A DNA stretch of 64,000 nucleotides from a virus, in the IMG/VR virus record IMGVR_UViG_3300029922_000001, positions 230,512 through 294,511 of that record; one strand, 5' to 3'. Shown piece after piece: positions 38,088-56,861 of this stretch (position 1 is the stretch's first letter; each line of letters opens with the position of its first letter). Both the position numbers and the translations under genes were made by a program. A model generated the notes under the pieces. It was not told the origin of the DNA. It made no database searches and was given only the letters and a program-made list of their open reading frames with translations.

Positions 38088-38286
38088 AACAGCAATAGAA
38101 ATGTCAATATAAGAAATTAATATATTCTTAGCCACTAAAGTATTTGGTTGGACTAACGTTAAAAAGAAACGCCCTTAATTTATGTAAGGCTTCTGTTAGA
38201 ACCTTGATTCTGTTTTCTTTTTTAGCAATATCGTCTGCTACTTTTTGTTTAAATATGATATTATCTAAGCAATTATTCATAGCCTA

Positions 38287-39183
38287 TTATAAGAGAACTA
38301 CTCTGTCCTCAATAATACTCTTTACAAAACCACCAACGTATGTGGTGAACTCTGGATTCCAATGCTTAGGCATAAATTGAGGATTCATACACTCCACAAA
38401 GTGATTTCGCCAAAGCTTAATCATTCCTTCTGGTGTGTATTTAGCTACAATTAAGTTCCAAGTATTCTGTTCCTTATATCGCTTCTTTAATACATACTTG
38501 CTTAGGTTTTGGTTCTTCTTTTTAATGCTTTCTTTTAGTTCTGGAGACATGCTCTTTCGAATTTCTTCTCTAGCATCATATTCTTCCTTAGCATATTTGT
38601 AAACCAAATCAAGATCCAATGGCGCACCAATCTGCTTTTCAAGCTTATTCCATAGTGCTACCCATTCATAGCTATTCATTGAAGTTTCTGAATAAACTAA
38701 ATGGAAACACTGTTTCTTAAATGTGCCTCTCATAACCAAACTAGTATGTTCAACTTCACTCTTTAGCTTTGCCTTCAAAGGATTAGCAAACTTTTGTTCA
38801 TATAGTTCATGACATTCACGACAAGTTAACACTAAATCGTGTGCTTCAGCAAACTTCTTATACTTTACAGGAAAGAAATTACGTACACATTTAGGAATAA
38901 CGTGATGCCTGTCTAAATTATCTGGTCTACCGCAAACAACACACATAGTTTGTCTAGGTGTTTTGTAGATTGGGTGAGTCAAATTTAAAATTTCGTCACT
39001 TGGTTTCTTATTGAGTTGTAATACGCAAGGTTGCTGCGATACGATTTGTCCTTTTTCGTATCTCAATAAGAGATTAGCAATACTTCTACCTGTGTAAAAG
39101 ACTACTTCATTATTTGGGTCAACGACCTTCACATTTTGATAAAATGGATTTTCGTCTGACCACCGATTTCCTTTTGAAGCCAT
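38287..39183 (-). CDS. HNH endonuclease domain protein
   Basis: CVVCGRPDNLDRHHVIPK ... LTCRECHELYE (HNH: C..C...H-H...C..C.H). Confidence 0.65.
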   Translation of the reverse strand: MASKGNRWSDENPFYQNVKVVDPNNEVVFYTGRSIANLLLRYEKGQIVSQQPCVLQLNKKPSDEILNLTHPIYKTPRQTMCVVCGRPDNLDRHHVIPKCVRNFFPVKYKKFAEAHDLVLTCRECHELYEQKFANPLKAKLKSEVEHTSLVMRGTFKKQCFHLVYSETSMNSYEWVALWNKLEKQIGAPLDLDLVYKYAKEEYDAREEIRKSMSPELKESIKKKNQNLSKYVLKKRYKEQNTWNLIVAKYTPEGMIKLWRNHFVECMNPQFMPKHWNPEFTTYVGGFVKSIIEDRVVLL

Positions 39184-39204
39184 ATAAGCTATTGTAGCAT
39201 ATTT

Positions 39205-39651
39205 CTATGGTGATTTCGCCCAATAGTTTTTATAATGTTTAACTTCAGCATCTAAATCAAAAGGTAATCCTTTAACATGGTTGAAGTAAGCTTTAGATAT
39301 AATGCCAGTCATATCATCCGCATGAAGTACTCCTAAATTTTTAAACCACTTAGCTAATACGGAGTCATGCCACAATCCCCAGGTATTGCGCATATAAGTA
39401 CCATAGCCATGATGTGGCATCATTTCATAAGTGGATTTAGCATCATTTTTGATGAAATCTATATATTCAGGAGTTGCCACTGAATCAAAATAAGCGATAA
39501 CTTCATCTAGATTATTTGGGATATTGGTTGCACTAATAGCGGGTAAGATTTTTACAACCTTAACTAGCCTATTAAAATATTCATTATTATCGAAAGCGTC
39601 TTGAATTGATTTGTCTGTGACTTTTTCCATGCGTACTTCATCATTGTTCAT
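39205..39651 (-). CDS. hypothetical protein
   Basis: 148-aa ORF. Confidence 0.45.
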   Translation of the reverse strand: MNNDEVRMEKVTDKSIQDAFDNNEYFNRLVKVVKILPAISATNIPNNLDEVIAYFDSVATPEYIDFIKNDAKSTYEMMPHHGYGTYMRNTWGLWHDSVLAKWFKNLGVLHADDMTGIISKAYFNHVKGLPFDLDAEVKHYKNYWAKSP

Positions 39652-40196
39652 AGTTTATTATACTTAATCAGATTCTCTTCTTGTGTGATTTTATCCCAAG
39701 GTGCTTTAGATTGAAGAACTTTTTCAACAGTTGGATCATAATCCCAACGTTTAATCATATTTTGAATACTTTTAAGAGGTACACTATGTTGATTTCTTTT
39801 AGCTAATTCTTGTGCATCGAATTTCCAAGGTGTTTCAGGTTCATGAAAACTAACTTTATAATCATATTTTTGAGCAAGTTTTACGTACTCTCGAAATTCA
39901 TAAAAAGAACAATTTGTATTGTCACAAATAATAGGAGTAATACCTTGTTGCATTGCCACTTCAGTTCTTCTTTCATTTTCTTTATGATTTTCAGTTAGTT
40001 TATTAACATCAAATTTATATTCACCATTAACCATAAATAGATCATCAGTAGAATGAATAACTCCACCTTTTCCTAATTGCTTAGAAAGAAAACTTTTGCC
40101 AGAACCGGGAAGTCCGCGAATTATTCTTAACTCTTTTTCTTGTTGTGCTTTTCTATACCAAGTAGACATAATTCGATTATACCATTTTTCTATCAA
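39648..40196 (-). CDS. P-loop kinase (AAA_33 / polynucleotide-kinase-like)
   Basis: Walker A RGLPGSGKSFLSKQL and a downstream ICDNTN segment, consistent with a Walker B / Asp-containing lid. 182 aa. Confidence 0.6.
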   Translation of the reverse strand: MIEKWYNRIMSTWYRKAQQEKELRIIRGLPGSGKSFLSKQLGKGGVIHSTDDLFMVNGEYKFDVNKLTENHKENERRTEVAMQQGITPIICDNTNCSFYEFREYVKLAQKYDYKVSFHEPETPWKFDAQELAKRNQHSVPLKSIQNMIKRWDYDPTVEKVLQSKAPWDKITQEENLIKYNKL

Positions 40197-40884
40197 TAAT
40201 TTCTCTAGTAATATATCCAGTAAACTTCTGCCAAGATTTCCGCGTCATTTGTTTTCTTACTCTTTTATATAAAGAATGTTTCTTAATTGCTTTAGTTATT
40301 GCTTTACCATTGAGCTTAATAGAGTCAACATCAATGCACGACATAAAGCTTTTTGCTAAAGCTTGAACTTCTAGGGGATTGTTAAAATACGCATACTCTC
40401 CCATGTCATAGATGTTGATATATGTTTTGTCTTTACGTTTTTCTGTATACTCATTTTGAAAATTAGTAATATACAAATCATAATCAGCATGAAAATCTGG
40501 CACACATCCTGCTTGTAAACAGTGAACCAACTCATGTCCCAATCTATCAACATAATCTGCGAGACAATGACATTCACATATATCAAGATATATGTAATAG
40601 TACATATATCTTTCACCAAAACCGCTGGAATCATCATCTAAAAGAAATATTCTAATAGGATATTTAAACATTTTTAGTGAGTTTAACCAATTTTCTATTT
40701 CTAATAGTTTTCTTCTAAATTTATTACCATTAATGGAACTTTCTAATATACCAATACTTTCCTCAATACAAGGATGACGTTGTTTAACTGTTTTTGTTTT
40801 TATTTCACTTAATTTCCAATTAACTTCAATTAATCGTTTAGCTAATTCAACTTCAATTCCATGTGTATCGGGGATTTTAGGCAT
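40177..40884 (-). CDS. hypothetical protein with HExxH motif (possible zinc metallopeptidase)
   Basis: GHELVHCLQAG. Confidence 0.45.
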   Translation of the reverse strand: MPKIPDTHGIEVELAKRLIEVNWKLSEIKTKTVKQRHPCIEESIGILESSINGNKFRRKLLEIENWLNSLKMFKYPIRIFLLDDDSSGFGERYMYYYIYLDICECHCLADYVDRLGHELVHCLQAGCVPDFHADYDLYITNFQNEYTEKRKDKTYINIYDMGEYAYFNNPLEVQALAKSFMSCIDVDSIKLNGKAITKAIKKHSLYKRVRKQMTRKSWQKFTGYITREIIDRKMV

Positions 40885-40934
40885 AAACTCTTAAACTCTC
40901 TAACTCGTAAGCACCTTGTGGTGCTTTATTATAC

Positions 40935-41219
40935 TTATCGGTAAATATGAATGTGAGCAAAGGTTGGTTTATTGGTTAATGCTACTTCGTATTTCAAAAC
41001 ACAAGAATCTTCACCATCTTTCATGTGTTTGGCAGATATAATTTCTTTATCAATACCATCTTTTCCAGCAAGACGAATACCTGTTTGTTTAAGAGCGGCA
41101 GATTTGATAGCGTGTTGGAAAAATATATCAGCGTGTTGTGAATATCCTTCACGATCTAATCTAGCACTCATTTCTAAAATTAAATCTTGATTCATATAAC
41201 CAATATACGCAATCCACAA
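40935..41219 (-). CDS. hypothetical protein
   Basis: 94-aa ORF. Confidence 0.4.
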   Translation of the reverse strand: MWIAYIGYMNQDLILEMSARLDREGYSQHADIFFQHAIKSAALKQTGIRLAGKDGIDKEIISAKHMKDGEDSCVLKYEVALTNKPTFAHIHIYR

Positions 41220-41407
41220 TTAAAAACCTTTACAATAAAATATGGTTTCTAAGCGTAAAATACTCAAAGTAATAAATAGAGAAATTAGAATAGTCAACTC
41301 TAATATACAAAGATGTAGTTCAAAAAGTAGCTATTTGAGACTTATGACACGTAAAATTCTCTTAATTAATTATCAACACAAATTACAATAATTCTTATAA
41401 TACAATT

Positions 41408-41800
41408 ATGGAAAATACAAATAAAATCCCTAAAGAAATTAAGATCGTAAAAGTTGGTAGTGACGATTATCCTGCATCTGAAGCAGATTTAGAAGCAGTT
41501 CAAGAAGAATTAGCCGCATTAGCTAACGATCCCACATTGCCTAAAACTAATAAATATAAAACTCAAACCATTAAACCTTCCGGTAAAGGTGAAAAACAAA
41601 TTTTATTTGTTAAACTTGGTAATAGACATCGTTATGCCAGTGAGTCAGACCTGGATTCAGTAAGGGAAGAAATACTTAAATCATTAAAAGATTTAAAAAA
41701 TGATAATCTACTCACCTGGGTCGTACCTCATGATTTTAACATCAAAATTCTCAATGTTGATTCACAAGATGATATTGAAGTAAAAGTTGAACGCGGATAA
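41408..41800 (+). CDS. hypothetical protein
   Basis: 130-aa ORF preceded by CTTATAATACAATT-ATG. Confidence 0.45.
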   Translation: MENTNKIPKEIKIVKVGSDDYPASEADLEAVQEELAALANDPTLPKTNKYKTQTIKPSGKGEKQILFVKLGNRHRYASESDLDSVREEILKSLKDLKNDNLLTWVVPHDFNIKILNVDSQDDIEVKVERG

Positions 41801-42151
41801 TTACCAAATAAGAGTTGCATAAGTTATGTCATCTTCAGTCCAATAATGGACTTCGTAGCCCATAATAGCCATTTCTGCGGCAAATAAACTACCATCATCA
41901 TGAGTTGCGTAAGTTGGTTGACTGATTGTTATTTTCCGTTTACCAGCTTGTGCTGCTCCACTAATTCGCTTAAAAACCGATGCAAAACGTTGTTCGATTT
42001 GTTCCTGACGTTGTTTCTTTTCTATTACAGGAATTGCTGTCACTTTTGGCATTAATCCTCTAGCTTCTTTGGCTTTCATATCATTATTGTACTTATAATA
42101 GAGATATGAAGCCATTATGGACAGATAGAGATCGTAGCCCAAGTGAACCAA
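41801..42151 (-). CDS. hypothetical protein
   Basis: 116-aa ORF. Confidence 0.4.
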   Translation of the reverse strand: MVHLGYDLYLSIMASYLYYKYNNDMKAKEARGLMPKVTAIPVIEKKQRQEQIEQRFASVFKRISGAAQAGKRKITISQPTYATHDDGSLFAAEMAIMGYEVHYWTEDDITYATLIW

Positions 42152-42456
42152 ATTTCACAGATTATACCTATGTGTATTTTCAAGGTCATAAAATTGGAGA
42201 AATTAAAGATTGCATAAGTTATTCTTTAACTCCATATTTAAATGAAGCTGAAATTGATGACATTGATCATATTTGCACTTTTACTATTATAAATCAATAT
42301 AAAGAATATGATCAAAAGTGTATAGAAATTGTAGATGAATGCGGAAGATATTACAACATGCATAATGAAATAATACAACTTGGATTAAAGGCTAAAATTC
42401 AACAGTTAGGTGAATTGTATGCAAATGAAACTAAAAAGATGGCTACTGTTGTATAA
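42106..42456 (+). CDS. hypothetical protein
   Basis: 116-aa ORF. Confidence 0.4.
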   Translation: MKPLWTDRDRSPSEPNFTDYTYVYFQGHKIGEIKDCISYSLTPYLNEAEIDDIDHICTFTIINQYKEYDQKCIEIVDECGRYYNMHNEIIQLGLKAKIQQLGELYANETKKMATVV

Positions 42457-42764
42457 ACAGTAGCATGGATATTTTAGATAGATACAGTAAAGATACTATA
42501 GATTATGTGCTATTAACTGACGTATGCAAATCCGCAATACTCGACACCATTTTTCAGATGGTAGATAGAGGGGCACCAGATGAAGAGATTCTTGATGATA
42601 TCAGGCAATTAAGAGAAAGATATCTAAGTATTCGTTAAATTATGTAACAAATTAGGATTGCGGAATCCTAGTTAATATGGAACAAAATCTATTAACCATT
42701 CATATCAATCGTCTTCAAAAACTTATTCAAATGAACGCACCTGATTTTATCATAGAACAAGAGG

Positions 42765-43439
42765 TTAAATTATTACTCTCACTTTGGGTTTAACCCAAAG
42801 TGACTCAATAGTAAAATAAACAACAATACCTAAAGCTGGATTAATTTCATATTCATGCTCTCCATCTTCATTTATAACAGGTTGATCATTATCATCATAT
42901 AAATAAATATGCCCACGAACATCATCGGCAGGTAAACATTTAATTTTACTAACTTGTAAATCACCATAAACTTGTATATTTTTACATACGGCTTCACGGT
43001 GAGCATCCTCAAACATGTTTAAGCCATCATCAAATAGTAATTCTTGGCGATTGTAACCAGCCTGATTAAGTGTTTGATAAATATAAACATCTAATTGTCT
43101 AGATAAGCTTCTAATGGCTTTATTTGCACTAGACTCACTAAATAAAGCACCCATTCTTTCATCCCAAGGCAAATCACACTTTGGATCACGCATTCTTACT
43201 GCTAATGAACATGCTATTTCAATAGGTTTAATACTGTCTAAGTCTATTGTTTTAATTTGTTGTGGTATATGAAAGCGACTATTAGATAATGCCACAACGT
43301 CCATATTAATATATGAAGAATCTATGACTGTTAAAATACTTTTCCAAGTGTTGGTAATACCATCAAATTTTTCTTGAATAACTAATTCCTGTTGTTTAGT
43401 TGCTTCAATCCTATCATTTACATTTTTAAAGTAATTCAT
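42765..43439 (-). CDS. hypothetical protein
   Basis: 224-aa ORF. Confidence 0.5.
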   Translation of the reverse strand: MNYFKNVNDRIEATKQQELVIQEKFDGITNTWKSILTVIDSSYINMDVVALSNSRFHIPQQIKTIDLDSIKPIEIACSLAVRMRDPKCDLPWDERMGALFSESSANKAIRSLSRQLDVYIYQTLNQAGYNRQELLFDDGLNMFEDAHREAVCKNIQVYGDLQVSKIKCLPADDVRGHIYLYDDNDQPVINEDGEHEYEINPALGIVVYFTIESLWVKPKVRVII

Positions 43440-44302
43440 ATATTATTATAAGTCATTTTATAATCATAATCATAAGCCTTAAACCACTTCCTGATAGCAT
43501 TATCACTAACTCCATATTTCTTACCAATCTTAACCATTGATAAAGTTTTGTAATCTTCAATTAATTGTTCTAATGATGGTCTTTCTGCTTTTCGTGTATT
43601 TAATGCACGATCTTGTGAGTTTGGTAATACAATATTAAAGTATTTACATATTCTTATAATTTTACTTTCAGAACATTTAAATTGTTTGCCAATTAATTTT
43701 AATCCATTTTTATTAATCAATTGTTGGAGTTCTTCTTTGGTTAAATTATTATCATCTACCCAAATTTTATAATCTTTTTTTTGTCTTTCTTTAACCTCTT
43801 TTATTGATAAATGTTTTGCCCATAATTTGTTTTTAGATCCAAAATTATCAGTTTGACTATGACAGTTAGGACATAAAAATCTTAAATTATCTTGTGTATT
43901 ATGAGTGTAGTTTCCATCAACATGATCAACGTGTAATGTTATTTTCTTTCCTAACCAATCTTTATTGACAAAACATTCACTACCTTCACACTCATAAGGT
44001 CTTCCAGTTTCAATAAGAGCCCTAGTTAATAATTTAGATGATACTCTGTTATTTCCAAATTTTATATTTACTAAAATATCTTCGGCAGTTTTACGATTTA
44101 CACTTTTCTTGCCTCTCATCCAGTTTTCACTATTGAAATGGTCTGTATTAATATTAAAATAATTAACTCTACGTTTAATGTGTGTTTGGCTACCACCAGC
44201 TTGTACAATATTTAGATTTCTTAAAACCCCTGCATAGGAAAAACTTTTATTTACCGCTTCTTCTAATATGTCTTTTGTGTATTTTTCTTTATATTTTCTC
44301 AT
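43436..44302 (-). CDS. HNH homing-endonuclease-like protein
   Basis: HVDHVDGNYTHNTQDNLRFLCPNCHSQTD (HNH core), plus a C-terminal DNA-binding-like region. Lies directly next to the tRNA-Leu array. Confidence 0.7.
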   Translation of the reverse strand: MRKYKEKYTKDILEEAVNKSFSYAGVLRNLNIVQAGGSQTHIKRRVNYFNINTDHFNSENWMRGKKSVNRKTAEDILVNIKFGNNRVSSKLLTRALIETGRPYECEGSECFVNKDWLGKKITLHVDHVDGNYTHNTQDNLRFLCPNCHSQTDNFGSKNKLWAKHLSIKEVKERQKKDYKIWVDDNNLTKEELQQLINKNGLKLIGKQFKCSESKIIRICKYFNIVLPNSQDRALNTRKAERPSLEQLIEDYKTLSMVKIGKKYGVSDNAIRKWFKAYDYDYKMTYNNI

Positions 44303-44381
44303 ACTATTAATATACTGGAAGATACACTAAATTACCTTTAATTAAAGGTATAGGTTCAAATTTATAATAAAATTTATCTCG

Positions 44382-44462
44382 TACTAGGAAAGGGACTCGA
44401 ACCCTCAAGGATCATTCGTTCTTAACGAAGTGGGTCTGCCATTTCCCATTATCCACCCTAGC
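44382..44462 (-). tRNA. tRNA-Leu-like (anticodon AAG), atypical: about 5 extra nt between acceptor stem and D-arm; possible pseudogene or duplicate of 44983..45068
   Basis: Acceptor GCTAGGG/TCCTAGT. Anticodon loop TTAAGAA. T-arm GAGGG-TTCGAGT-CCCTT. The 5' half does not fit the canonical 9-nt spacing. Confidence 0.4.
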
Positions 44463-44475
44463 ATATTAATCTCGG

Positions 44476-44557
44476 TACTAGAGAAGGGATTCGAACCCTC
44501 AAGGATTTTTGTTTCTAAAACAAAACGGTCTACCGATTCCACGTTATCCACCCTAGC
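44476..44557 (-). tRNA. tRNA-Leu-like (anticodon UAG), atypical 5' half; possible pseudogene or duplicate of 44872..44973
   Basis: Shares its first 14 nt (GCTAGGGTGGATAA) with 44382..44462. Anticodon stem TTTGT/ACAAA with loop TTTAGAA. T-loop TTCGAAT. Confidence 0.4.
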
Positions 44558-44567
44558 ATTTATCTCG

Positions 44568-44651
44568 TCCCGGCGAGTGGACTCGAACCACCACGCCCTT
44601 TCAGGCAACAGATTTTGAGTCTGCCGCATCTACCAATTACACCACACCGGG
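44568..44651 (-). tRNA. tRNA-Leu (CAA), class II
   Basis: Acceptor CCCGGTG/CGCCGGG. Anticodon stem GCAGA/TCTGT with loop CTCAAAA. Variable arm GCC-TGAAAG-GGC. T-arm GGTGG-TTCGAGT-CCACT. Discriminator A, then CGAG. Confidence 0.75.
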
Positions 44652-44871
44652 ATATTTCTCGTATAAGAAATTAATTCTTATTTTGTGAATCAAGTTGTCT
44701 TACTCTACTAAATAAAGCATCTCTCATTTCTTTGTTTTCACTTACTTCTTTAGCGTATGCACCCATCATATTTCTAAACATTTTTTGACCTTCTTCAGTA
44801 TTCATTGCTGATTCAATTATTTTCATTTTTTCAGGACTTGTTATAATCATATTAATTCTCCAATATCTCGG

Positions 44872-44973
44872 TGAGCAAACAGGGACTTGAACCCTGATGA
44901 CATTTTACTGTCGATGGGTTAGCAAAATTCTGATCTTGCTAAGCCCATTGCGTCTACATTTCGCCATTCGCCC
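44872..44973 (-). tRNA. intron-containing tRNA-Leu (UAG), class II, 102 nt with an 18-nt insert in the anticodon loop
   Basis: Acceptor GGGCGAA/TTTGCTC. Anticodon stem ATGGG/CCCAT flanks CTTAG + 18 nt + AA. The insert forms the TTAGCAA/TTGCTAA helix with the anticodon. Variable arm GACA-GTAAAA-TGTC. T-arm CAGGG-TTCAAGT-CCCTG. Confidence 0.55.
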
Positions 44974-44982
44974 ATATTCTCG

Positions 44983-45068
44983 TGCGGAGTAAAAGATTTG
45001 AACTTTCACCTGTTGATAAGACAGAATGGGACCTTAGCCCATCGCGGCTACCATTACGCCAACCCCGC
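44983..45068 (-). tRNA. tRNA-Leu (AAG), class II
   Basis: Acceptor GCGGGGT/ACTCCGC. D-arm GCG/CGC. Perfect anticodon stem ATGGG/CCCAT with loop CTAAGGT. Variable arm CTGT-CTTATCA-ACAG. T-arm GAAAG-TTCAAAT-CTTTT. Confidence 0.75.
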
Positions 45069-45077
45069 ATATTCTCG

Positions 45078-45159
45078 TCCGGGCGAGAGGGTTTGAACCT
45101 CCATGTCTTGCGACGGCAGGTTTTAAACCTGCTGCGGCTACCAATTTCGCCACACCCGG
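45078..45159 (-). tRNA. tRNA-Leu (UAA), class II
   Basis: Acceptor CCGGGTG/CGCCCGG. Anticodon stem GCAGG/CCTGC with loop TTTAAAA. Variable arm GTC-GCAA-GAC. T-arm GGAGG-TTCAAAC-CCTCT. Confidence 0.75.
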
Positions 45160-45417
45160 ATATGTAACAACAATACTTAAAACAACAAAAAAAAGCCTGA
45201 TTAGGATCAGATCCCAACCAGGCTTAACAAGTAAAATACAGTACTCTTATGCAGCTAGTTGGGTTCCTCCTAATAGTAGGAGGCTTGTTAAACCTTGTAG
45301 TTGCAAAGAATTCTTGTTCACGTATATATTATAGCATGATCCGAATGAAATTAACCATAATTTCTATAAATTATTTGAAAGAAGGAATTATTCATATAGA
45401 CATTGTAGATATTTAGT

Positions 45418-46764
45418 GTGAAACAAATTATTACAGCTAAATTAAAATTAGAAACAAATAAAGAACAATTTAAAGAATTAACTAATCTTAGTTTAGCTTA
45501 TTGTGGCGCTTTGAATTTTGGCTCTAATAAAGCCTTTGAATTAGACAAAACTACTAATGCTAACTTATTGCACAAAAGTATATATCGAGAATGTCGTGAT
45601 AAATTTGGATTACCATCACAATTAGCTTGTAGCGTTTCTAGATATGTTACTGCTTCTTATAAAACATTGTGGACAATTACCAATAAAAATATTAAAGCAA
45701 GAAAAAACAAAGAAACTAAGAGAGTTTATAAAGGACTGAATAAAGCTCCAAAATATATATCAAGAACGACTATGTTTCAATATGGTAGAGATTTTACATT
45801 CAAGAAGGATCAACAAATTAGTATTATTACTCTTAATGGAAGAATTCTTCTAGATTATAAAGGATGGAATAAACATCTTAATTTAATTAAAGATGAAAAT
45901 ACCAAAATTGGTGGAGCTAAACTTTATTATGATAAAGCTAAGAAAACTTTCTATCTCTTAGTTAGTTTAGAAATAGAAACACAAGAAGAAAAACAAATTA
46001 ACACAATAGGTATTGATTTGGGTCAAAGATATTTGGCTGTGGTAACTGATACACAAGATAATACATTGTTTATTCCTGGTAAGGAATGTATTAATCAAGT
46101 TGGAAAATATCAACGAGTTCGTAGTAGTCTTCAAAAAAAGATTAAAACGAATAAGAAAAATGGTAAAGGCACTCGTTCTATAACTAGAAAATTAATCCAA
46201 GTTAAAGGACAAGAGAGACGGTATAGATTATCATTAAATCATCAAACAGCAAGTTCGATATTACAAAGATTTCCTAATTCAAATATAGGATTAGAAAATC
46301 TTAAAGATATTAGAACAAGAACAGAAAGACATAGCAGTAAAAAAGATAGCAAAAAAAGAAAAGAAGCTAATCGTAATAAAGCTTCTTGGTCTTTTAATGA
46401 GTTACAACAATTAATAGAATATAAAGCTAATTTATATGGTAGTAAAATATTTAAAGTAGATGCCCATTATACATCTCAAATGTGTACTAAATGTGGTTAT
46501 ACTTCTAAAGAAAACAGACCTAAAAGTGGCTTGAATTTTATTTGTTGTAATTGTAATTTTAAATTACATGCTGATTTGATTGGAGCTAGAAATATAGCTA
46601 TGAGAACATTGTTATCTAGACAAGATTTAGATAATAAGGGGCATTTATCAATTGTCCCAGTAAGCGGCAAAGCCGCTTTAGATACCTCGAACAGTGAAGT
46701 TAAAGCGGAATCCTTGAAAAAGTATTCTGAATTGAGATGGAGTTCGGAGGCAAACTTAACTTAA
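45418..46764 (+). CDS. tnpB: TnpB (IS200/IS605 OrfB) RuvC-like RNA-guided-nuclease family protein (Fanzor/TnpB-like)
   Basis: RuvC-I IGIDLGQRYLAVVTD. RuvC-II ..SWSFNELQQLIEYKA. Zinc finger CTKCGY ... CCNCNF. RuvC-III HADLIGARNIAMR. GTG start in the track. Confidence 0.8.
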   Translation: MKQIITAKLKLETNKEQFKELTNLSLAYCGALNFGSNKAFELDKTTNANLLHKSIYRECRDKFGLPSQLACSVSRYVTASYKTLWTITNKNIKARKNKETKRVYKGLNKAPKYISRTTMFQYGRDFTFKKDQQISIITLNGRILLDYKGWNKHLNLIKDENTKIGGAKLYYDKAKKTFYLLVSLEIETQEEKQINTIGIDLGQRYLAVVTDTQDNTLFIPGKECINQVGKYQRVRSSLQKKIKTNKKNGKGTRSITRKLIQVKGQERRYRLSLNHQTASSILQRFPNSNIGLENLKDIRTRTERHSSKKDSKKRKEANRNKASWSFNELQQLIEYKANLYGSKIFKVDAHYTSQMCTKCGYTSKENRPKSGLNFICCNCNFKLHADLIGARNIAMRTLLSRQDLDNKGHLSIVPVSGKAALDTSNSEVKAESLKKYSELRWSSEANLT

Positions 46765-46830
46765 TTGCTAAGCATTTTGATAACGATCTTATTATACTCT
46801 TGTTTCTTCCTTTTTGCTATCTTTTCTAGA

Positions 46831-47091
46831 TTATTTTTGACTTATTTTATAATTCATATATTCTATAACTGGATCATCTAATAACTCCATAATAACATTA
46901 AATTTTGTATTTATACCACCTGAAGCCTCAGCGAGTAGACCTTCAAATTGTGGATCAAATTGAAATAATTTACAAGGAGTCATAAGGTTCGATTTATTTT
47001 TTAATATAAATCTCACTTGCTCTTGTATCGTGTAGCCAATAATTATATTCATATATCCATTAGCTAAAATTTGTTTAGACTTTATAAGCAT
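46831..47091 (-). CDS. hypothetical protein
   Basis: 86-aa ORF. Confidence 0.4.
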   Translation of the reverse strand: MLIKSKQILANGYMNIIIGYTIQEQVRFILKNKSNLMTPCKLFQFDPQFEGLLAEASGGINTKFNVIMELLDDPVIEYMNYKISQK

Positions 47092-47108
47092 ATTACTCTA
47101 ATACTAGA

Positions 47109-47417
47109 CTAAAGCCTTGATGACCTAACCTTACCACTCTTTTCTGGATTATTTCTATCAACAACATAAAATCTTCTTTGACGAAATGTTTCCTTGTGAT
47201 GTTGCTTTCTAGTAACTTTCTCTTCATCGGAAATATCTACATCTAGAAAAACCTGATTCCACATATCGTAAATAGTTTTCTTTTCGTAGTCATACCATAT
47301 ACCTGTTTCAATACTCCATAGTCCACTTGTTTTAAGTTTAATAGTGGGAATATTTATTGATGCTAAATTTTCTGAAGTAATAGAATTTATTTTATCGTTT
47401 AGTTGTGTGCCATTCAT
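47109..47417 (-). CDS. hypothetical protein
   Basis: 102-aa ORF. Confidence 0.45.
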   Translation of the reverse strand: MNGTQLNDKINSITSENLASINIPTIKLKTSGLWSIETGIWYDYEKKTIYDMWNQVFLDVDISDEEKVTRKQHHKETFRQRRFYVVDRNNPEKSGKVRSSRL

Positions 47418-47423
47418 ACTTTA

Positions 47424-47981
47424 TTATACGTTTGGTTTTCTATTGACAACACCTACAACAGATTGATCTTTATTTGTATACCAATCACCACTTTCTACCC
47501 CTGCTGGTTCATCTCTAAATAATGGATTATCGTAATCAGCCATTGGACTATAGTGATATTTAACTTGTTGACCATCATGAAGTTCAACAGAACCATTACC
47601 TAATGATTTTTGAATGCTAGGATGTTTTCTAACAAATATAGCTTGATTATATGGATTTTTAGCCCACGAAGGACCATCGCTAAAAAATGTTAATTCGGGA
47701 CCATCACCATGTTCGTCTTGTACATTTTGCCAATGTTCTGTACTTTTAAGAAAATCACCAGCGGAAGGATAAATACCATATTTAAAATCAGTATTATCAG
47801 GTTTTCTAGCGTGAACTAATAATTTACCTTGTTCTAATCCGCGTTGTAATTCATCATGAGACTGGTATTTGTCATCATACTCGTCATCATCAGGAAATAA
47901 TTGTAAATCATGATGATGTTCAAAGGGGTTCCAACTGTCGTCAGTATCAAATATAGCTGTTTTAATACGTCTATACCACAT
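47424..47981 (-). CDS. hypothetical protein
   Basis: 185-aa ORF. Confidence 0.5.
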   Translation of the reverse strand: MWYRRIKTAIFDTDDSWNPFEHHHDLQLFPDDDEYDDKYQSHDELQRGLEQGKLLVHARKPDNTDFKYGIYPSAGDFLKSTEHWQNVQDEHGDGPELTFFSDGPSWAKNPYNQAIFVRKHPSIQKSLGNGSVELHDGQQVKYHYSPMADYDNPLFRDEPAGVESGDWYTNKDQSVVGVVNRKPNV

Positions 47982-47989
47982 ATTGATAT

Positions 47990-48376
47990 TTACGTAATTG
48001 CTTTATCTTCAACCTCTAGCTTATCTTGAATTTGTTTGATTAGGTTTTCTGGCATATTCTGAAATGGAAATGTTAGTGTACGAATATGAGGGTATATTTC
48101 TAAAACCCATTCACACGTGTCATTTAGTGTTAAACGCATTCCATAACCATTCCCAGAAGTTGTTACATTAAAACAATTATTCCTAACACAATCATGTAGT
48201 GTTGTCATTAAATCAATATATAAATTAGTAATCATTGATTGAGTATTAATGTTTGTATTATTACGTTGATTCAATAAAGGTTGACTTGCCTCTACGACAG
48301 AGGCAATATACATTTGAATTAAATCTCTATTTTTTAGTATAAAATTTTCTATTATTTCTTCTTCATATTCTTGCAT
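47990..48376 (-). CDS. hypothetical protein
   Basis: 128-aa ORF. Confidence 0.45.
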   Translation of the reverse strand: MQEYEEEIIENFILKNRDLIQMYIASVVEASQPLLNQRNNTNINTQSMITNLYIDLMTTLHDCVRNNCFNVTTSGNGYGMRLTLNDTCEWVLEIYPHIRTLTFPFQNMPENLIKQIQDKLEVEDKAIT

Positions 48377-49558
48377 TTATGCCGCCTTCTTTTCTGATAT
48401 TTTATCAATAAATTTTCCATCACCCCTTAAATCCACAAAACGACAAGGGTTTTCATAAACTTTCCAAGTTGGCATATTTTCATTCACTTCTAATCGAAGT
48501 TTTTTAGGTTCTTCGGCTGGAATGATAATGATATCGTTTTTACTTGCCTTAACAGGTGGTTCCCACTTTGTTGCACCAATACAACCACAATATTCAACAT
48601 GATCACCAACTACAACCATGCCATGCACAGGTTCTAGAATAACAGTGCCATCTTCTTGTTCTAGCTTATTAGAACCAATAACACCAGCAAAGATTTTATA
48701 ATCCGTATCTGTAGTTAAGTTTTTATAATTTACAGTGGCGATACCATGAGGGAAATTCTTACCCATCAAATCTTCATCTAACTCACAAATGAACTTAGTA
48801 ATCCAACCAGAAACATAGAAGTCACTACCAGAACCACACTTTTCACCAATGTACATATTAGACCAAAAATCTTGATCTTCTAAATTCATCAGTAATTTAT
48901 CACTTAAAAACATGAGTAGATTCCATGCCCATTCACCATTATCTTTTAGTTGAGGAAATTCTTCAGCAACGTCAAGCATCATATTAGCAACGCTATACCA
49001 AGCTTTATATAACTTTTCCCAATCTTCTCTATCGCCCTTAACTGTAATAGAAGGAAAACCACAACAAAACATACGGTAATTATAATATTGACTAACACAT
49101 TCAAGGGTTAAAGCACAACTAGCTAAATAGCTGAAACCGGTTGATGTAGTAAATTCAGGAGTAATCCTTGAAACATCAAAAGGTGACTTTTCTTTAACCC
49201 CTGCAATAAGAGAAGTTATAAATGCTCCAATAGGAAGCGGACCCATCACTATAATATCCTGTTTTTCTTGTGAGGTCGTGAAATACTTTCTAAACTCTTC
49301 TGGGTGTGCGACAACAATCTTTACAAATTCAGAAAATGCTAATTGCCAAAGTAAATCAGGAGTAATAACCAATCCACCATGATCGCCCCAACACTGTTCA
49401 AAATACCCACCAATGCCTTGAGAATAAAAATCTGCTATCGTGGTTGAATATAATTCTGTAGAGACTTTTTCAGGAATAAAACTTTTAATAGTAGCTGGAG
49501 TTTCATAAGGTGAACCCCAAAACTTCTTTTTCGCATCTAATATGTACGTATTTGTCAT
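48377..49558 (-). CDS. hypothetical protein (393 aa)
   Basis: Long ORF preceded by GGAGTATAATAAAGC-ATG on its strand. No motif recognised. Confidence 0.55.
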   Translation of the reverse strand: MTNTYILDAKKKFWGSPYETPATIKSFIPEKVSTELYSTTIADFYSQGIGGYFEQCWGDHGGLVITPDLLWQLAFSEFVKIVVAHPEEFRKYFTTSQEKQDIIVMGPLPIGAFITSLIAGVKEKSPFDVSRITPEFTTSTGFSYLASCALTLECVSQYYNYRMFCCGFPSITVKGDREDWEKLYKAWYSVANMMLDVAEEFPQLKDNGEWAWNLLMFLSDKLLMNLEDQDFWSNMYIGEKCGSGSDFYVSGWITKFICELDEDLMGKNFPHGIATVNYKNLTTDTDYKIFAGVIGSNKLEQEDGTVILEPVHGMVVVGDHVEYCGCIGATKWEPPVKASKNDIIIIPAEEPKKLRLEVNENMPTWKVYENPCRFVDLRGDGKFIDKISEKKAA

Positions 49559-49564
49559 GCTTTA

Positions 49565-49816
49565 TTATACTCCAATAATTTCCGGTTGAGAATTGAACAT
49601 TGCATCAACTTGCTCTTGGGTGATTCTTTTGCCCTTATAATAATACTCTGGAGTATCTAATCTGTACACTTTACCATTTTCATCCACTCCGACACCAATA
49701 CAACAAATACCCTCTTCTTCATATATGTGAGGTAAATTTGATTTCCAATCTTCATTAGGATTAGAAAAATCACGAGGGGGAATTTTAATTACATTCATGT
49801 TTTCATTATAGCTCAT
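49565..49816 (-). CDS. hypothetical protein
   Basis: 83-aa ORF. Confidence 0.4.
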   Translation of the reverse strand: MSYNENMNVIKIPPRDFSNPNEDWKSNLPHIYEEEGICCIGVGVDENGKVYRLDTPEYYYKGKRITQEQVDAMFNSQPEIIGV

Positions 49817-49854
49817 GTTTTCATTATAGCGTTTAGCAGTATAATAAGAACATC

Positions 49855-50547
49855 ATGGGAAAACAAAGTCGCCTAAGAAAAGAAAGAAAAGAGCGTCAAG
49901 AGAAAATCGCAATTGAGCAACCACAGTCTAGCTATTTACTAGAACCAGAACGTGCTGATTTAAGAACCGACTTAGGTGAAATTGCTGATTTTGCAGAGAC
50001 AATGCAACTAGATCAACTCAATAAGAAATTAAAGAAAATGATTGATTGGTTTAGAGGACATTTTGATGGCATCTGCACTACTATTAATGAAAATATTGTA
50101 GATATTGAAAATATTGGTATTTACAATGTTGACACAAACGAAGTAGAACCTTTGAAAGCGGCAAACATTGCTAAAGGACTATTAACACTTCCACCTTCAA
50201 GATTTCCTGTTGCACTAAAAGAACCTATCACAGAATCATTTGTTTCAGAAGATATAGATGCTATTGTTGACGAAACCAAAAACAACAAGATTCTAGATGA
50301 AATTACTATTGCTATTTTGAAGCTTGCTGAATGTAATAAAATTATGGCAGCAGCACAACAATTAGTTATGATGAATGATCTGCCATTAAATTTGGTTCAC
50401 GAAAAACTTGGCGACATCCGACTAGAGAAAGGTGACATGACTTATCCTTGCTATGAAATTACAGCAATTATGGCTGGTTTAATTGTTCTCGCTTCTGTTG
50501 GCAGTACCAGTTCATTTAATCCAAAGAATTTCCAATTTGTTCTATAA
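49855..50547 (+). CDS. hypothetical protein
   Basis: 230-aa ORF. Confidence 0.5.
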   Translation: MGKQSRLRKERKERQEKIAIEQPQSSYLLEPERADLRTDLGEIADFAETMQLDQLNKKLKKMIDWFRGHFDGICTTINENIVDIENIGIYNVDTNEVEPLKAANIAKGLLTLPPSRFPVALKEPITESFVSEDIDAIVDETKNNKILDEITIAILKLAECNKIMAAAQQLVMMNDLPLNLVHEKLGDIRLEKGDMTYPCYEITAIMAGLIVLASVGSTSSFNPKNFQFVL

Positions 50548-50575
50548 ACTTCATAACCTATTGTATAAATAGAAT

Positions 50576-51202
50576 ATGAAGTTTATCAAGAATTGGCTTG
50601 TAAAATTATTTAAACCTATTATTGATGAATTAGTACGTCAAAACATACAGTCCATTATTGACGATCTACATATTTATGTAGATCACGCGAAAAACGACAT
50701 CAAAAGTACATTAACTCATGATTTAAATGATTTTTCAGAACAAATAAGTGCAACAGAAAAACTAATACAACAAAAATCTAATACTATAGATAGTAAGTTA
50801 AGTGATTATGATTCAAAAATCAAACTTATAGATACCCATGTTATAGATTTTACTAATAGGTTTTCAAACACCACAGAACAAATTAAAGAAACACACAATC
50901 AAGCCATAGATAAAATTAATACAGAGCTAGGTTTGGCAATTCAAAAATCTTCAAGTAAAAACACTACAGATATGCTCAATGAGATTGACAGTTTACGTGA
51001 ATCTCTTAAAATGACTTATCGTGCTGTTGATGATGAACTTAACCGTGTTCATTTTAGAATCAAAGGTGTGGAAGTAATCACAGAAGCTGAACTAAAAGAT
51101 ATAGAAACAAAAACCAAGAACGAAGTAATTGGTCTTCTTGAATATATTGATAATAACTGTGTTTTGAGAGAAGGTGATTATATAAATAATCTAGAACATT
51201 AA
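50576..51202 (+). CDS. hypothetical coiled-coil protein
   Basis: 208-aa ORF. Its ATG lies inside the inverted repeat ACTTCATA...TATGAAGT. Confidence 0.5.
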   Translation: MKFIKNWLVKLFKPIIDELVRQNIQSIIDDLHIYVDHAKNDIKSTLTHDLNDFSEQISATEKLIQQKSNTIDSKLSDYDSKIKLIDTHVIDFTNRFSNTTEQIKETHNQAIDKINTELGLAIQKSSSKNTTDMLNEIDSLRESLKMTYRAVDDELNRVHFRIKGVEVITEAELKDIETKTKNEVIGLLEYIDNNCVLREGDYINNLEH

Positions 51203-51205
51203 ATT

Positions 51206-52018
51206 ATGAATATAAAAGTTAGTGGAATATATAGAATTATAAACAAAATAAACAATAAATCATATGTAGGAAGTTCTACAGATATACAAGATAGATGGTG
51301 GAAACATAGAAAAATGTTAAAAAATAATAATCATTCTAATCCTCATTTACAGGCATCATATAATAAATATTCAAGTGTTGTTTTTGATTTTGAAATATTG
51401 CAATCTATGCCAGGGGCAACCACTAAAGAACTCCAAGAAAAAGAATTATCATGGATGTTATTTTTAAATGTACATAATAATAAAAATGGGTATAACATTA
51501 ACGGAGTTGAAGGTTATAAAATAGGTTTTAAGCACACTGAAGAAACTAAAAAGAAAATAAGTGAATCTGTAAAAAACAGAACATACACAGAAGAACAATT
51601 GGAAAATTTAAGAAACAATTTAAGTAAAATAATTAACAATCCAGAAACGAAAAGGAAAATTTCAGAATCTAAAAAAGGAAAATTATTAACAAAAGAACAT
51701 AAAAGGAAAATTTCAGAATCTAAAAAAGGAAAATTATTAACAGAAGAACATAAAAGAAAAGTTGGTGATGGTAATCGCGGTAAAATAATAAGCGAAGACA
51801 CAAGAGAAAAACAAAAAATATCTATTTTAAACAATAAGGAATTTATGAACAAATTAATTAAAAAATGGATAATAATAAATCCTGATGGGGAAGAATATAA
51901 AATAGAAAATTTATCTCAATTTTGTAGAGATAATCAATTAAGAGATGGATGTATGTCTTTAGTTGCGCAAGGTAAAAGAAAATCACATAAAGGATGGAGT
52001 TGTTATGAAATTAAATAA
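51206..52018 (+). CDS. GIY-YIG homing endonuclease with NUMOD3-type DNA-binding repeats (T4 Seg-like)
   Basis: [18 protein letters not shown] ... R..H (GIY-YIG core). Tandem repeats [16 protein letters not shown](K/E)[24 protein letters not shown]. Confidence 0.8.
51655..51750 (+). repeat. direct tandem repeat (about 42 nt x 2.2) encoding the NUMOD3-like [14 protein letters not shown] unit inside the GIY-YIG gene
   Basis: AAAGGAAAATTTCAGAATCTAAAAAAGGAAAATTATTAACA.AGAACATAAAAG appears twice in succession. Confidence 0.6.
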
Positions 52019-52553
52019 TATTAACATTTTTTATACTGCGATCAAATTCACATTAAGTTTTGAGGGGTCATATAGTTTAAATAAAGATGATCCAGGTGGG
52101 GCTACAAACTATGGAATTATTCAATCTGAATATAATATCTATAGAAAATCTAAAAAACTACCAGAACAATCTGTTAAGTTAATTACAATAGTTGAAGTTA
52201 AAGATATCTATAAAAACAGTTATTGGTTGTCTGCCAAATGTGATAAATATCAAACAAAATTAGCTATTGTAATGTTTGATACCGCTGTTAATTTTGGGAC
52301 CGGTAGAGCCGCAAAATGGCTTCAAAAATCACTAGATGTTGCACAAGATGGTGCTATTGATCCAGCTACTTTAGCAAAATTAGCAAAAACAGATCAAGGA
52401 TTATTAGCCAATAGAATTTGTGAGTATAGAATTGCATTCAGATATGCAAGAGTAGCATCTGCGCCTAGTCAAAAAGTCTTTTTAAATGGTTGGCTTAATA
52501 GAGACAATGCACTTAAAAAACTAATTGGTGGGACTATCACTTTGGTTAGTTAA
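51963..52553 (+). CDS. GH108-type lysozyme-like N-terminal domain + peptidoglycan-binding (PG_binding_3-like) C-terminal domain; endolysin-like peptidoglycan hydrolase
   Basis: [20 protein letters not shown] is the GH108 catalytic-Glu motif. The C-terminus ..[11 protein letters not shown] resembles the PG-binding domain. The likely start is the internal ATG near 52005 (MKLNNINIF). Confidence 0.7.
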
Positions 52554-52684
52554 TTCTAATAAAAACATATCTATTTCTCTAGCAAAAGAAGTAAATAAAA
52601 TCTTTTTATTAGCTGGAGTTTCATTATTAATATACGCCATTAATGAAGCTGCTAATATAGAAGCCTCTTGTCAATTACCCACAG

Positions 52685-53794
52685 CTAAAGCAGTGGGCTT
52701 GTTACAACCGCGCTTTGCGCGGGAACAATAGGGATATTGACTAATCCCCTACATTGAATATTTAAGGAAGCATTATAATCAGCATTAGCAGCGAAGCTGC
52801 AAGATAAACATTTAAATTCACTCTGATTCTTCCTATTTTTCTTATTACAATATCCACAATGAGAACACGTCTGGGACGTGTATGCTGGATTAACAAGAAA
52901 AACAGGAACACCTTGTTCCTTGGCTTTATATTCAATAAACGATCTAAGTTGAGCGAAGCTCCAACTTAATCTTTCATTACGATTAGCTTTTCTGACCGTT
53001 ACTCTTTTATTGATTCCTTTTAACTCTTCTAGAGCTATACCAAATTGAGTGCCTTTAGCTTTATTAACTATTTCTTTGGAAATACAATGATTAACATCTT
53101 TTCTAAATCTTGATTCTTTATTTCCAATAGTTTTAATTCTTTTCTTTGCAGAGCGTGTCCCACGCTTCTGTAATCTCGTTCTGTGATCATGATATTTCTT
53201 TCTCTTATTTTCTATTTTATCAGAACTATAGATAGTATTATCAGAAGTAGTAGCAATATTTTTAACACCTAAATCGACTCCAATAATTCCTTTAGTATTA
53301 TATTTTTCTTCAGTTGGAGTTGGAATATCAAGAGTACATAATAAGTAAAATTTATTATTTTGAAGTACTAGATCAACTTGACCTTTTCTAAATTTAAATA
53401 ATTCATTATTCCATATTTGGATTGGAATATTCATTCTTCCTTCAATAGTCCAAATATTAACTATTTTATTATTTTTAAAAGTAATAACTCTGTCGTCATA
53501 GACGACAGCAGAAGTTTTCTTAAATGAATTAGGATATTTTCTATGTTTACTTATTTTATAAGAACAAGATACAACGTCAATAGCTCTAATGGTTAATTGA
53601 GAAGAAAATTCTTTATATTTTTCTCTTGAAGGATGATAAACAATTTTTTGCAATTGATTTTTATGAAATTGCCCAACTTTAAAAGCTTCTTCAGAAAATT
53701 CATTACAAATTTGATTAAAGACATTCATCGTGCCCAAGAGGGCACGATATTGATTATCATCTGTATTTAGCTTAATCTTCAATATTTTCTTCAC
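52685..53794 (-). CDS. tnpB: TnpB (IS200/IS605 OrfB) RuvC-like nuclease family protein, second diverged copy
   Basis: RuvC-I IGVDLGVKNIATTSD. RuvC-II ..SWSFAQLRSFIEYKA. Zinc finger CSHCGY ... CLSCSF. RuvC-III ADYNASLNI. Confidence 0.8.
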   Translation of the reverse strand: MKKILKIKLNTDDNQYRALLGTMNVFNQICNEFSEEAFKVGQFHKNQLQKIVYHPSREKYKEFSSQLTIRAIDVVSCSYKISKHRKYPNSFKKTSAVVYDDRVITFKNNKIVNIWTIEGRMNIPIQIWNNELFKFRKGQVDLVLQNNKFYLLCTLDIPTPTEEKYNTKGIIGVDLGVKNIATTSDNTIYSSDKIENKRKKYHDHRTRLQKRGTRSAKKRIKTIGNKESRFRKDVNHCISKEIVNKAKGTQFGIALEELKGINKRVTVRKANRNERLSWSFAQLRSFIEYKAKEQGVPVFLVNPAYTSQTCSHCGYCNKKNRKNQSEFKCLSCSFAANADYNASLNIQCRGLVNIPIVPAQSAVVTSPLL

Positions 53795-53961
53795 TATTAG
53801 TGTTATACATATTAATTAATGATATTCCTTCTTTTTGGTAAATATTTATTGAAAATATTTGGTTCGATTCCTCCCACGGCTGAAGACCGTGGGCTTCCTC
53901 TCACATTATCGTGAAGGTACTTCAATAGAGTTAGTTTTATTCCAGTAACAAGGATACCTAA

Positions 53962-54582
53962 TCATTTTTTCTGTCCATATCTATCAAAAACCTCAAGAGT
54001 ATCTTCATAGTTCTTACGATCTACTTCTTCTTGTTTGTAAGTTAATACCATTTTAACAATCTGATCTACTGTGTCTTCGCCTTCCATTTTTACAGAATGA
54101 TAGGTAATGCTATTTCTATCTAATACGTTTTTGATATCAGCATCTGCTTCTAGTGCCTTAGTTAAATCTTGATAACGACCTGATTCATCATAAGCTACCA
54201 AATCTAAGTTTCTTTCGATTAACACGTTGAAGTTATTAAACTCATTGAAAATTTCCACAATGTATGGTTCAAACAAAGAAGTACAACCAAACCCTTTATA
54301 GATAGTTCCCATTAAGATAGAAGTATCAGTGACGGCAATATCGACTTTACCAATAACTGGAATCATTTGACGCATATATTGTTTCACAGTAACGTATAAC
54401 TGATTTTTTATTTTATTATCTTCAGTCCAATATAAGTCTTTTGCGTATTCTGGAATATACTCAACATTAACCCCTTTTACCTTTAATTTATAAAATACAC
54501 CAGCAGCAACTGTTGATTTACCAATTCCAGGTCCGCCAAAAATGTTTATTATGATTGTATCTTTAATGTTGTGTGGCATCAT
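53962..54582 (-). CDS. P-loop NTPase, paralog of 1486..2070
   Basis: Walker A IFGGPGIGKSTVAAGVFYKL. Collinear with the 1486..2070 product. Confidence 0.5.
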   Translation of the reverse strand: MMPHNIKDTIIINIFGGPGIGKSTVAAGVFYKLKVKGVNVEYIPEYAKDLYWTEDNKIKNQLYVTVKQYMRQMIPVIGKVDIAVTDTSILMGTIYKGFGCTSLFEPYIVEIFNEFNNFNVLIERNLDLVAYDESGRYQDLTKALEADADIKNVLDRNSITYHSVKMEGEDTVDQIVKMVLTYKQEEVDRKNYEDTLEVFDRYGQKK

Positions 54583-55245: not shown

Positions 55246-55246
55246 C

Positions 55247-56772: not shown

Positions 56773-56861
56773 AGTATTGTTATTTTAAATTTGCAATTAT
56801 TAATATCCTTTTTTATTTATTATCCATTTTTGATGATCGTTTGATGTATACTAGAATTATG

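Follow-up and report, generated by a model that had tools for sequence, protein, structure and literature searches.

A TnpB-Type Nuclease with an Overlapping Predicted Omega-RNA Scaffold, Resident in a Huge Phage and Probably No Longer Transposable

The tnpB Gene in the Window

We analysed a stretch of 64,000 nucleotides of viral DNA, positions 230,512 to 294,511 of the IMG/VR record IMGVR_UViG_3300029922_000001, which is called the window here. It contains a gene for a TnpB-type RuvC nuclease (copy 1), and the 3' end of this gene overlaps a predicted omega-RNA scaffold. The two features are the following.

45418-46764, plus strand: tnpB open reading frame (ORF) of copy 1, 448 amino acids (aa), GTG start, uninterrupted; D200, E293, D386, C356/C359 and C376/C379
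46600-46781, plus strand: omega-RNA scaffold with stems P1-P6; full-length match to covariance model R1, 98.9 bits, E 8.5e-31

A preliminary description of this DNA had placed the nuclease at 45418-46830. The start is right, but the stop codon lies at 46764, and 46765-46830 is taken up by the scaffold's 3' end, the predicted guide and DNA between genes. The gene has a minus-strand tRNA-Leu cluster (to 45159) on one side and minus-strand ORFs from 46831 on the other. The same protein sequence has been recorded on a contig of the Joint Genome Institute (JGI) with a length of 441,498 bp.

Protein Family and Catalytic Residues

The copy 1 protein matched the Pfam families OrfB_IS605 (E 2.4e-8) and Cas12f1-like_TNB (E 7.2e-20). 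A search of 5.8 billion proteins found 2213 relatives at E <= 1e-10. The majority of them have a length of 435-450 aa and about 50% identity to copy 1 and belong to Ktedonobacteria and cyanobacteria, and the nearest one is the metagenomic protein P0002, with 66% identity.

In a family alignment of 29 sequences, D200 (GIDLG), E293 (IGLENL) and D386 (HADL) all occupy invariant columns, and so do C356, C359, C376 and C379 of the CxxC..CxxC motif; the C4 zinc finger/TNB domain is present. The finger had been described as complete and the RuvC residues as unmutated, and both statements agree with the alignment. The proposed motifs IGIDLG and HADLIGARNI were also correct, as they contain the invariant D200 and D386. 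However, the second acidic residue had been sought in SWSFNELQQLIEYKA, whose Glu lies on a conserved helix outside the RuvC-II strand and is non-catalytic. The catalytic Glu is E293 in IGLENL, which is located at the end of a beta-strand in the AlphaFold2 (AF2) model, where the RuvC domain has its full length.

The solved ISDra2 TnpB structure was aligned over chain residues 171-376 with copy 1 residues 180-401, a weak match (E 5e-7). Judging by the offsets at the ends of this alignment, D191 and D361, which we take to be catalytic residues of ISDra2 TnpB, fall on D200 and D386. The AF2 model has a predicted local distance difference test (pLDDT) value of 81, and residues 407-448 are predicted to be disordered. 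When the model was searched with Foldseek, the top matches were ternary complexes of Cas12f and TnpB (E down to 1.9e-19), and Cas12f, ISDra2 TnpB, ISFba1 TnpB and Fanzor2 were all matched at probability 1.00. Judged by the alignment and the predicted model, copy 1 is a prokaryotic TnpB with a complete RuvC triad and zinc finger and with the TnpB/Cas12f fold (WED, REC and RuvC). The assignment to the TnpB type thus stands. The label "Fanzor-like" does not, because the window belongs to a bacteriophage (tRNA and transfer-messenger RNA (tmRNA) genes, matches to head-protein and further phage families, and a GH108 lysozyme) and the nearest homologues are bacterial TnpBs. At the 120 positions that are conserved in at least 95% of the family, copy 1 retains 110 residues, and the changes are mostly conservative.

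The state of the catalytic site bears on the possibility that copy 1 is an exapted TnpB with a new function, either RNA-guided repression in the manner of TldR or the targeting of hosts or phages by means of a reprogrammed guide, without homing. TldR repressors that phages encode and that derive from TnpB have been described (PMC10705468, PMC13418256), as have immobilised TnpBs (PMC10691335), and the ends of copy 1, which are described below, look immobilised. However, the hallmark of TldR, which is catalytic loss or truncation of RuvC, was not found in copy 1: the triad, the zinc finger and the full-length RuvC domain are all kept, unlike in the nuclease-dead TldR. Moreover, 38000-58000 contains no spaced direct-repeat array of the CRISPR type, no omega-RNA array was found nearby, and the predicted guide is simply the adjacent flank, with no other target in the window. 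We give such an exaptation hardly any credence.

Omega-RNA Scaffold at the 3' End

To derive a consensus structure and the covariance model R1, 46 non-redundant bacterial 3' ends were aligned, with the window excluded. The consensus comprises six stems (P1-P6) and 46 pairs, 34 of which show compensatory changes. The value for paired cells was 94.8%, against 32-44% after the partners were slid by 1-3 columns, and the covariation score was 0.50, against 0.06-0.09 for slid partners. None of 500 shuffles reached the observed values.

The scaffold matched by R1 in the window shares the last ~165 nt with the tnpB ORF and runs 17 nt beyond the stop codon. In the window RNA, 43 of the 46 pairs are canonical, and in 23 pairs both partners depart from the consensus, mostly by G-C to A-U replacement. 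When this RNA was folded alone by minimum free energy, P1, P2, P3 and P5 were recovered (z -3.27). The coding sequences gave a similar signal. Across 45 non-redundant sequences, the entropy of synonymous codons drops from ~1.45 to 0.5-1.0 from window residue ~396 on, a drop which shows that the final ~50 codons are constrained as RNA. The conservation of the disordered C-terminal tail (residues 407-448) is likewise best explained at the RNA level.

An omega-type RNA overlapping the 3' end had been anticipated in the preliminary description, with a covariance-model search as the check. For such a conserved scaffold, predicted from sequence, the search was strongly positive with the custom model R1. 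Rfam has no family for it: neither the whole window at gathering thresholds nor 45100-47200 at E <= 10 gave an omega-RNA family, just tRNAs and noise.

It may be argued that copy 1 is a decaying relic on its way to becoming a pseudogene, whose ORF and RNA are non-functional and intact merely by inertia. The degenerate ends would fit this idea, and so would the divergence of copy 1 at conserved positions, which is the largest in its family. However, a frame of 448 codons stays open in DNA of 30% GC (guanine plus cytosine) content, and the highly conserved residues are largely kept, as described above. The composition has been fully ameliorated towards adenine and thymine (AT), yet 43 of 46 RNA pairs are kept, 23 of them by two-sided change, and this requires continued selection on the RNA structure. 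A relic is thus very unlikely in our judgement.

The GC-Rich Hairpin Insertion

46659-46679, plus strand: 21-nt in-frame insertion (VSGKAAL) between P2 and P3, with the stem-loop AAGCGGC-AAA-GCCGCTT at 46662-46678

A GC-rich hairpin had been noticed near the end of the ORF, at the place expected for an omega-RNA or guide RNA. The hairpin exists, although the last letter of the string that was quoted for it is wrong, and 46661-46679 reads TAAGCGGCAAAGCCGCTTT. It has a perfect 7-bp stem and is one of 14 GC-containing perfect hairpins in the 64 kb, against ~1 expected from Markov simulations. However, it is not the defining element of the RNA. The VSGKAAL segment is missing in 28 of 28 aligned relatives, and R1 also treats it as an insertion. 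By this comparison, the hairpin is a lineage-specific insertion of 21 nt within the larger scaffold, outside the RNA core.

Similar events have occurred elsewhere in the family. The loci L005 and L086 carry independent in-frame stem-loop insertions at the P2/P3 junction (UCCC-GAAA-GGGA and AGCACU...AGUGCU, respectively), and extra residues at or near this site are found in 8 of 120 family proteins. The recurrence of in-frame hairpin insertions suggests that the P2/P3 junction is a scaffold expansion site, which is tolerated by the disordered protein tail.

Element Ends, Adjacent Motif and Guide

45193-45225, minus strand: terminator-like stem-loop with T-run, the phage's own, just outside the element
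45224-45228, plus strand: TTAAC, a candidate for the transposon-adjacent motif, which in relatives reads TTCAC or TTCAT
45229-45417, plus strand: left-end region with a nested hairpin, a promoter-like site (45301-45330) and an untranslated leader
46755-46781, plus strand: degenerate right end, with a weak P6 (UUA..UAA plus two broken pairs) and TTTTGAT versus GGGTAnTTGAC in the family
46782-46801, plus strand: predicted guide segment AACGATCTTATTATACTCTT, the sequence flanking the predicted right end; its length is assumed

The form of intact ends can be seen in Ktedonobacter sp. SOSP1-85, in which 18 fetched loci carry the element. These copies are mostly 85-99% identical, and L007 and L052 are ~70% identical to the others. 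Their similarity extends from ~157 nt upstream of the ATG to an abrupt end at ...GGGTAnYTGAC, and the flanks beyond are unrelated. The TGA stop lies inside GGGTAnYTGAC. The elements are TnpB-only, and their right end coincides with that of the ORF. TTCAC is the motif at the left boundary in 14 Ktedonobacter copies.

In the window, model R1 puts the right end at 46781 (...AAGCATTTTGAT|). The terminal hairpin has ~3-4 A-U pairs and two broken ones, compared with 8-9 GC-rich bp in relatives, and the terminal GAC, which is invariant in 46 of 46 relatives, reads GAT. Judged by these sequences, the transposon ends of copy 1 are degenerate. The guide segment AACGATCTTATTATACTCTT has no second match in the window with <= 3 mismatches allowed, and an exact 20-nt scan of viral contigs gave no match.

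At the left end, the perfect hairpin CCTCCTA-ATAG-TAGGAGG (45266-45283) is nested within GCAGCTA..TAGTTGC (DNA fold z -3.48), and this nested-stem layout resembles the left ends of relatives. A second TnpB element of the window (copy 2, described below) and the loci L090, L092, L001 and L023 have TTCAC or TTCAT 16-18 nt ahead of the left-end hairpin. The window sequence TTAAC|AAGTAAAA resembles TTCAC|AGTAAAG of L023. TTAAC, directly after the terminator, is the best candidate for the adjacent motif, and the boundary may lie anywhere in 45229-45251. The preliminary description had proposed a hairpin further upstream as the left end. That structure is at 45193-45225 rather than 45196-45228, and as a minus-strand stem-loop followed by a T-run it is terminator-like. 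With these candidate boundaries, the element (~45229-46781) is placed between the stop codon of an 86-aa minus-strand ORF and the terminator of that ORF. A 55-aa ORF at 45249-45416 was considered as a gene and is regarded as spurious, as it has no family match and lies within the left-end region.

No transposase family was found among the neighbouring ORFs scanned with Pfam, in agreement with the earlier remark that TnpA is not adjacent. A rough TnpA probe had no match in the window, a result that carries little weight. In IS200/IS605/IS607 elements, a TnpA of the Y1 or serine type often accompanies TnpB but is not a requirement, and the members of the copy 1 family are mostly TnpB-only too.

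These ends also bear on whether copy 1 is a still-mobile IS200/IS605 element, served in trans by a host TnpA or by one encoded at another place in the 441-kb phage genome, in which TnpB and the omega-RNA just retain the transposon after excision. The family is mobile in bacteria, with ~18 copies in one Ktedonobacter genome, the relatives of copy 2 occupy differing loci in phage-like contigs, and copy 1 retains hairpins near both ends. However, the terminal GAT and the reduced terminal hairpin speak against mobility, as do a left end that is missed by the family profile which detects that of copy 2, the absence of any TnpA match in the window, and the lack of a second copy of the copy 1 element in the window. 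Continued mobility is unlikely on this evidence. The decayed transposon ends suggest instead that copy 1 has probably lost transposition.

Comparison with Known Systems

ISDra2 TnpB of Deinococcus radiodurans (PDB 8EXA, 8H1J) resembles copy 1 in domain organisation, in the D-E-D RuvC triad and in the C4 zinc finger, with fold matches of E 1e-13 to 1.6e-9. Like ISDra2, copy 1 may have a 5-nt motif by the left end, for which TTAAC is the candidate. With ISDra2 and the typical IS200/IS605 TnpBs it shares a scaffold, here a predicted one, made from the 3' end of tnpB plus the right end, with the flanking DNA as the predicted guide. Both the "typical" IS200/IS605 TnpBs and immobilised ones have been described (PMC10691335). 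However, copy 1 has 448 aa instead of 408, and its disordered C-terminal tail is almost wholly dual-coded with the RNA. It further differs from ISDra2 in its six-stem scaffold, its location in a phage, its degenerate ends and the fact that no TnpA was found.

The TnpB-only elements of Ktedonobacteria and cyanobacteria (~435-450 aa; Ktedonobacter sp. SOSP1-85, K. racemifer, Dictyobacter vulcani; loci L007-L086) have 47-52% full-length identity to copy 1. They share its omega-RNA structure, for which they were the source of the model, and its layout of a ~160-nt left end, an ORF and a right end at the stop codon. These elements are GC-rich and multi-copy, with canonical TTCAC...GGGTAnTTGAC ends and strong terminal hairpins, whereas copy 1 is AT-ameliorated and single, with the 21-nt hairpin insertion and decayed ends.

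The closest relative is the element of loci L001-L003, which encodes P0002 (66%) and also lies in AT-rich surroundings (30-38% GC). Unlike copy 1, the L001 element stands out from its surroundings with 50% GC, ends on either side in a canonical CCCCACCCC..GGGTGGGG hairpin and is without the hairpin insertion. It also has an extra 134-aa ORF (5600-6004) between the left end and tnpB, which overlaps the tnpB start by 4 nt; this ORF has no Pfam match and no counterpart in the window. Because it is a 50% GC island in DNA of 30-38% GC, the L001 element may be a recent arrival, as its composition suggests. The composition of copy 1 matches that of the phage, and this difference from L001 points to a long residence of copy 1 in the phage lineage.

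Cas12f (AsCas12f, PDB 8DZJ, 8J12) is the best structural match of copy 1 (Foldseek E 1.9e-19, template modelling (TM) score 0.60-0.67) and also its best PDB sequence match (phmmer E ~1e-15 to 1e-17). Copy 1 differs from Cas12f in that it has no CRISPR array (38000-58000) and that its guide would come from the transposon flank instead of spacers. Fanzor2 is a weaker match to copy 1 than Cas12f or TnpB.

The Second TnpB Element

52670-53909, minus strand: copy 2 TnpB element with canonical ends; ORF 53794-52685, 369 aa; TTCAC at 53914-53910

The name "copy 1" implied that there were several copies, and there is indeed a second TnpB gene at 52685-53794 on the minus strand. Its protein is 31% identical to that of copy 1 and also has the OrfB_IS605 and Cas12f1-like_TNB domains. 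The left end has TTCAC, then GCCCACGG..CCGTGGG and then AGGAAT, and the family profile recognises it at E 0.004. The right end is ...GCCCACTGCTTTAGCTGTGGGTAATTGAC, and the terminus of the omega-RNA reads GGGTAATTGAC. This RNA (~52779-52670) is shorter than that of copy 1 and was matched by R1 with 25.9 bits (E 5e-7).

The relatives of copy 2 (<= 73% identity) are located at differing loci on contigs of 248-479 kb with phage-type genes. Thus, the copy 2 family appears to be mobile among huge phages. The left ends of L092 (3861-4000, copy 2 family) and L001 (5480-5530, copy 1 family) are near-identical: TTCAT..GTGAGA(A/G)GAAACCCCACCCC..GGGTGGG(G)AGGAAT. The two TnpB families, with proteins only 31% identical, therefore share one end type. 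Their end sequences suggest that a single transposase type may mobilise both.

Since copy 2 has a comparable hairpin after P2 (CCGCGC-AAA-GCGCGG), it was considered as the origin of the hairpin of copy 1. We rejected this origin because the hairpin of the copy 2 family is a regular covarying stem enclosed by a short P3, whereas the copy 1 insertion lies outside P3. The ORF of copy 2 also contains three perfect GC-containing hairpins (52865-52881, 53490-53508 and 53729-53746). They were rejected as insertions since they encode conserved residues (TSQTC, AVVYDD and RALLGT), and they probably arise from codon choice.

Phage Setting and Neighbouring Genes

The GC content of the window is ~33%, and the window has 12 tRNA and tmRNA genes of bacterial type and a GH108 lysozyme with a peptidoglycan-binding domain. 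By its gene content, the window is part of a huge phage. In the phage collection, no record was similar to the window beyond tRNA genes, and the TnpB matches were at most 32% identical.

Two genes at 58569-59789 and 59948-61045 (minus strand) are adjacent paralogues, and both match the phage major-head-protein family phrog_2522. Translation-related cargo comprises a class II (Asp/Lys/Asn-type) aminoacyl-tRNA synthetase (34304-35779, plus strand) and the tmRNA (63063-63416, plus strand) with the tag GKSYAYVG. The gene at 26797-28380 (plus strand) encodes a phage protein that combines a WGR domain with the regulatory and catalytic domains of PARP. An HNH endonuclease gene (43436-44302, minus strand) lies inside the tRNA cluster, and a gene for a GIY-YIG plus NUMOD3 endonuclease (51206-52018, plus strand) adjoins the lysozyme gene. 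Together with both TnpBs, these selfish nuclease genes, which are of homing-endonuclease-like type, are clustered within ~10 kb.

Four tRNA-like sequences on the minus strand were missed by ARAGORN (44381-44464, 44475-44559, 44872-44973 and 15380-15482). Two of them form a direct repeat of 76% identity with T-arm-like motifs. The two others are Rfam tRNA matches of ~102 nt, which may have an intron or a long variable arm. The intergenic segment 49795-49830 is a perfect tandem duplication of 18 nt (TCATGTTTTCATTATAGC x2).

Proposed Role and Its Standing

We think it likely that copy 1 is a TnpB-only element of the IS200/IS605 type (~45229-46781) that is resident in a huge phage, serves as a homing or competition nuclease and is probably no longer transposable. 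In the established TnpB model, the nuclease cuts the uninterrupted site and the element is copied in by recombination (PMC10705468, PMC10278001). This standard role is also the most likely one for copy 1. For a phage, this would mean homing, or interference among genomes that infect the same cell, in analogy to free-standing homing endonucleases (reviewed in PMC13565253).

We infer the RNA processing, guide length, adjacent motif, cleavage and biological role of copy 1 as follows. The 3' part of the transcript (46600-46781) would fold into the six-stem omega-RNA scaffold and be bound by TnpB, and the ~16-20 nt from 46782 would serve as the guide. The TnpB-RNA complex would then cut DNA in which a TTCAC-like motif is followed by the guide sequence, so that AACGATCTTATTATAC... 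flanked by TTCAC or TTAAC would be the target. Such a target would be the uninterrupted intergenic site, ...CAGGCTTAAC|AACGATCTTATT..., in the genome of a sibling phage without the element. Repair by recombination with the genome that carries TnpB would bring the element in; otherwise the cut genome would be destroyed. In both cases, copy 1 would act as a nuclease for RNA-guided homing or competition. In this explanation, the GC-rich hairpin is an additional stem-loop that entered the scaffold, in frame, at a junction which tolerates insertions. The element has taken on the AT-rich composition of the phage, and its ends have decayed while selection kept the protein and P1-P5 through compensatory change.

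Several observations weigh against this explanation. At conserved positions, no other family member has diverged as far as copy 1, which retains 91.7% against a minimum of 93.3% among the relatives. Changes are seen in P6, the stem next to the guide, and in the terminal GAC that is invariant in relatives, and they may impair the function of the RNA as well as transposition. The family left-end profile misses the left end of copy 1, though it finds that of copy 2 (E 0.004), and for copy 1 neither the left boundary nor the adjacent motif is certain. IMG/VR scans with TnpB and the flanking 185-aa and 224-aa proteins found no relatives, and thus no sibling phage or empty site. In metagenomes (a collection without the window's own contig), the guide had three exact matches, none of them similar to the window or preceded by a TTCAC-type motif. 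These three matches look like chance, because the loci are unlike the window and no such motif stands directly before the match.

A further step would be that a huge phage lineage has kept an immobilised TnpB and its omega-RNA, for so long that AT amelioration became complete while compensation maintained the RNA, as a fixed-guide weapon or homing drive against siblings without it, with the hairpin as a functional scaffold expansion for stability, processing or partner binding. We put this forward tentatively and consider it doubtful as a whole. If true, copy 1 would be an intermediate form, found in nature, that links a transposon nuclease with a domesticated RNA-guided nuclease encoded by a phage.

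Earlier work has described TnpB-like proteins from huge phages (PMC11748809). Such proteins and immobilised TnpBs were thus known before, and copy 1 is another TnpB of this kind. It provides a documented case of a TnpB plus omega-RNA module in a huge phage, and it comes with a defined RNA scaffold for a large uncurated TnpB clade (the 2213 proteins above) that is without an Rfam family. The AT-ameliorated copy can be regarded as a natural experiment, in which replacement has reached nearly all G-C pairs of the bacterial scaffold and the structure holds. This marks P1-P5 as the important stems and P6 and the terminus as dispensable once transposition is lost. The P2/P3 junction would be a permissive site, which could help the engineering of compact TnpB guide RNAs. 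Biologically, copy 1 lends support to the view that transposon nucleases with RNA guides may take part in phage-phage competition.

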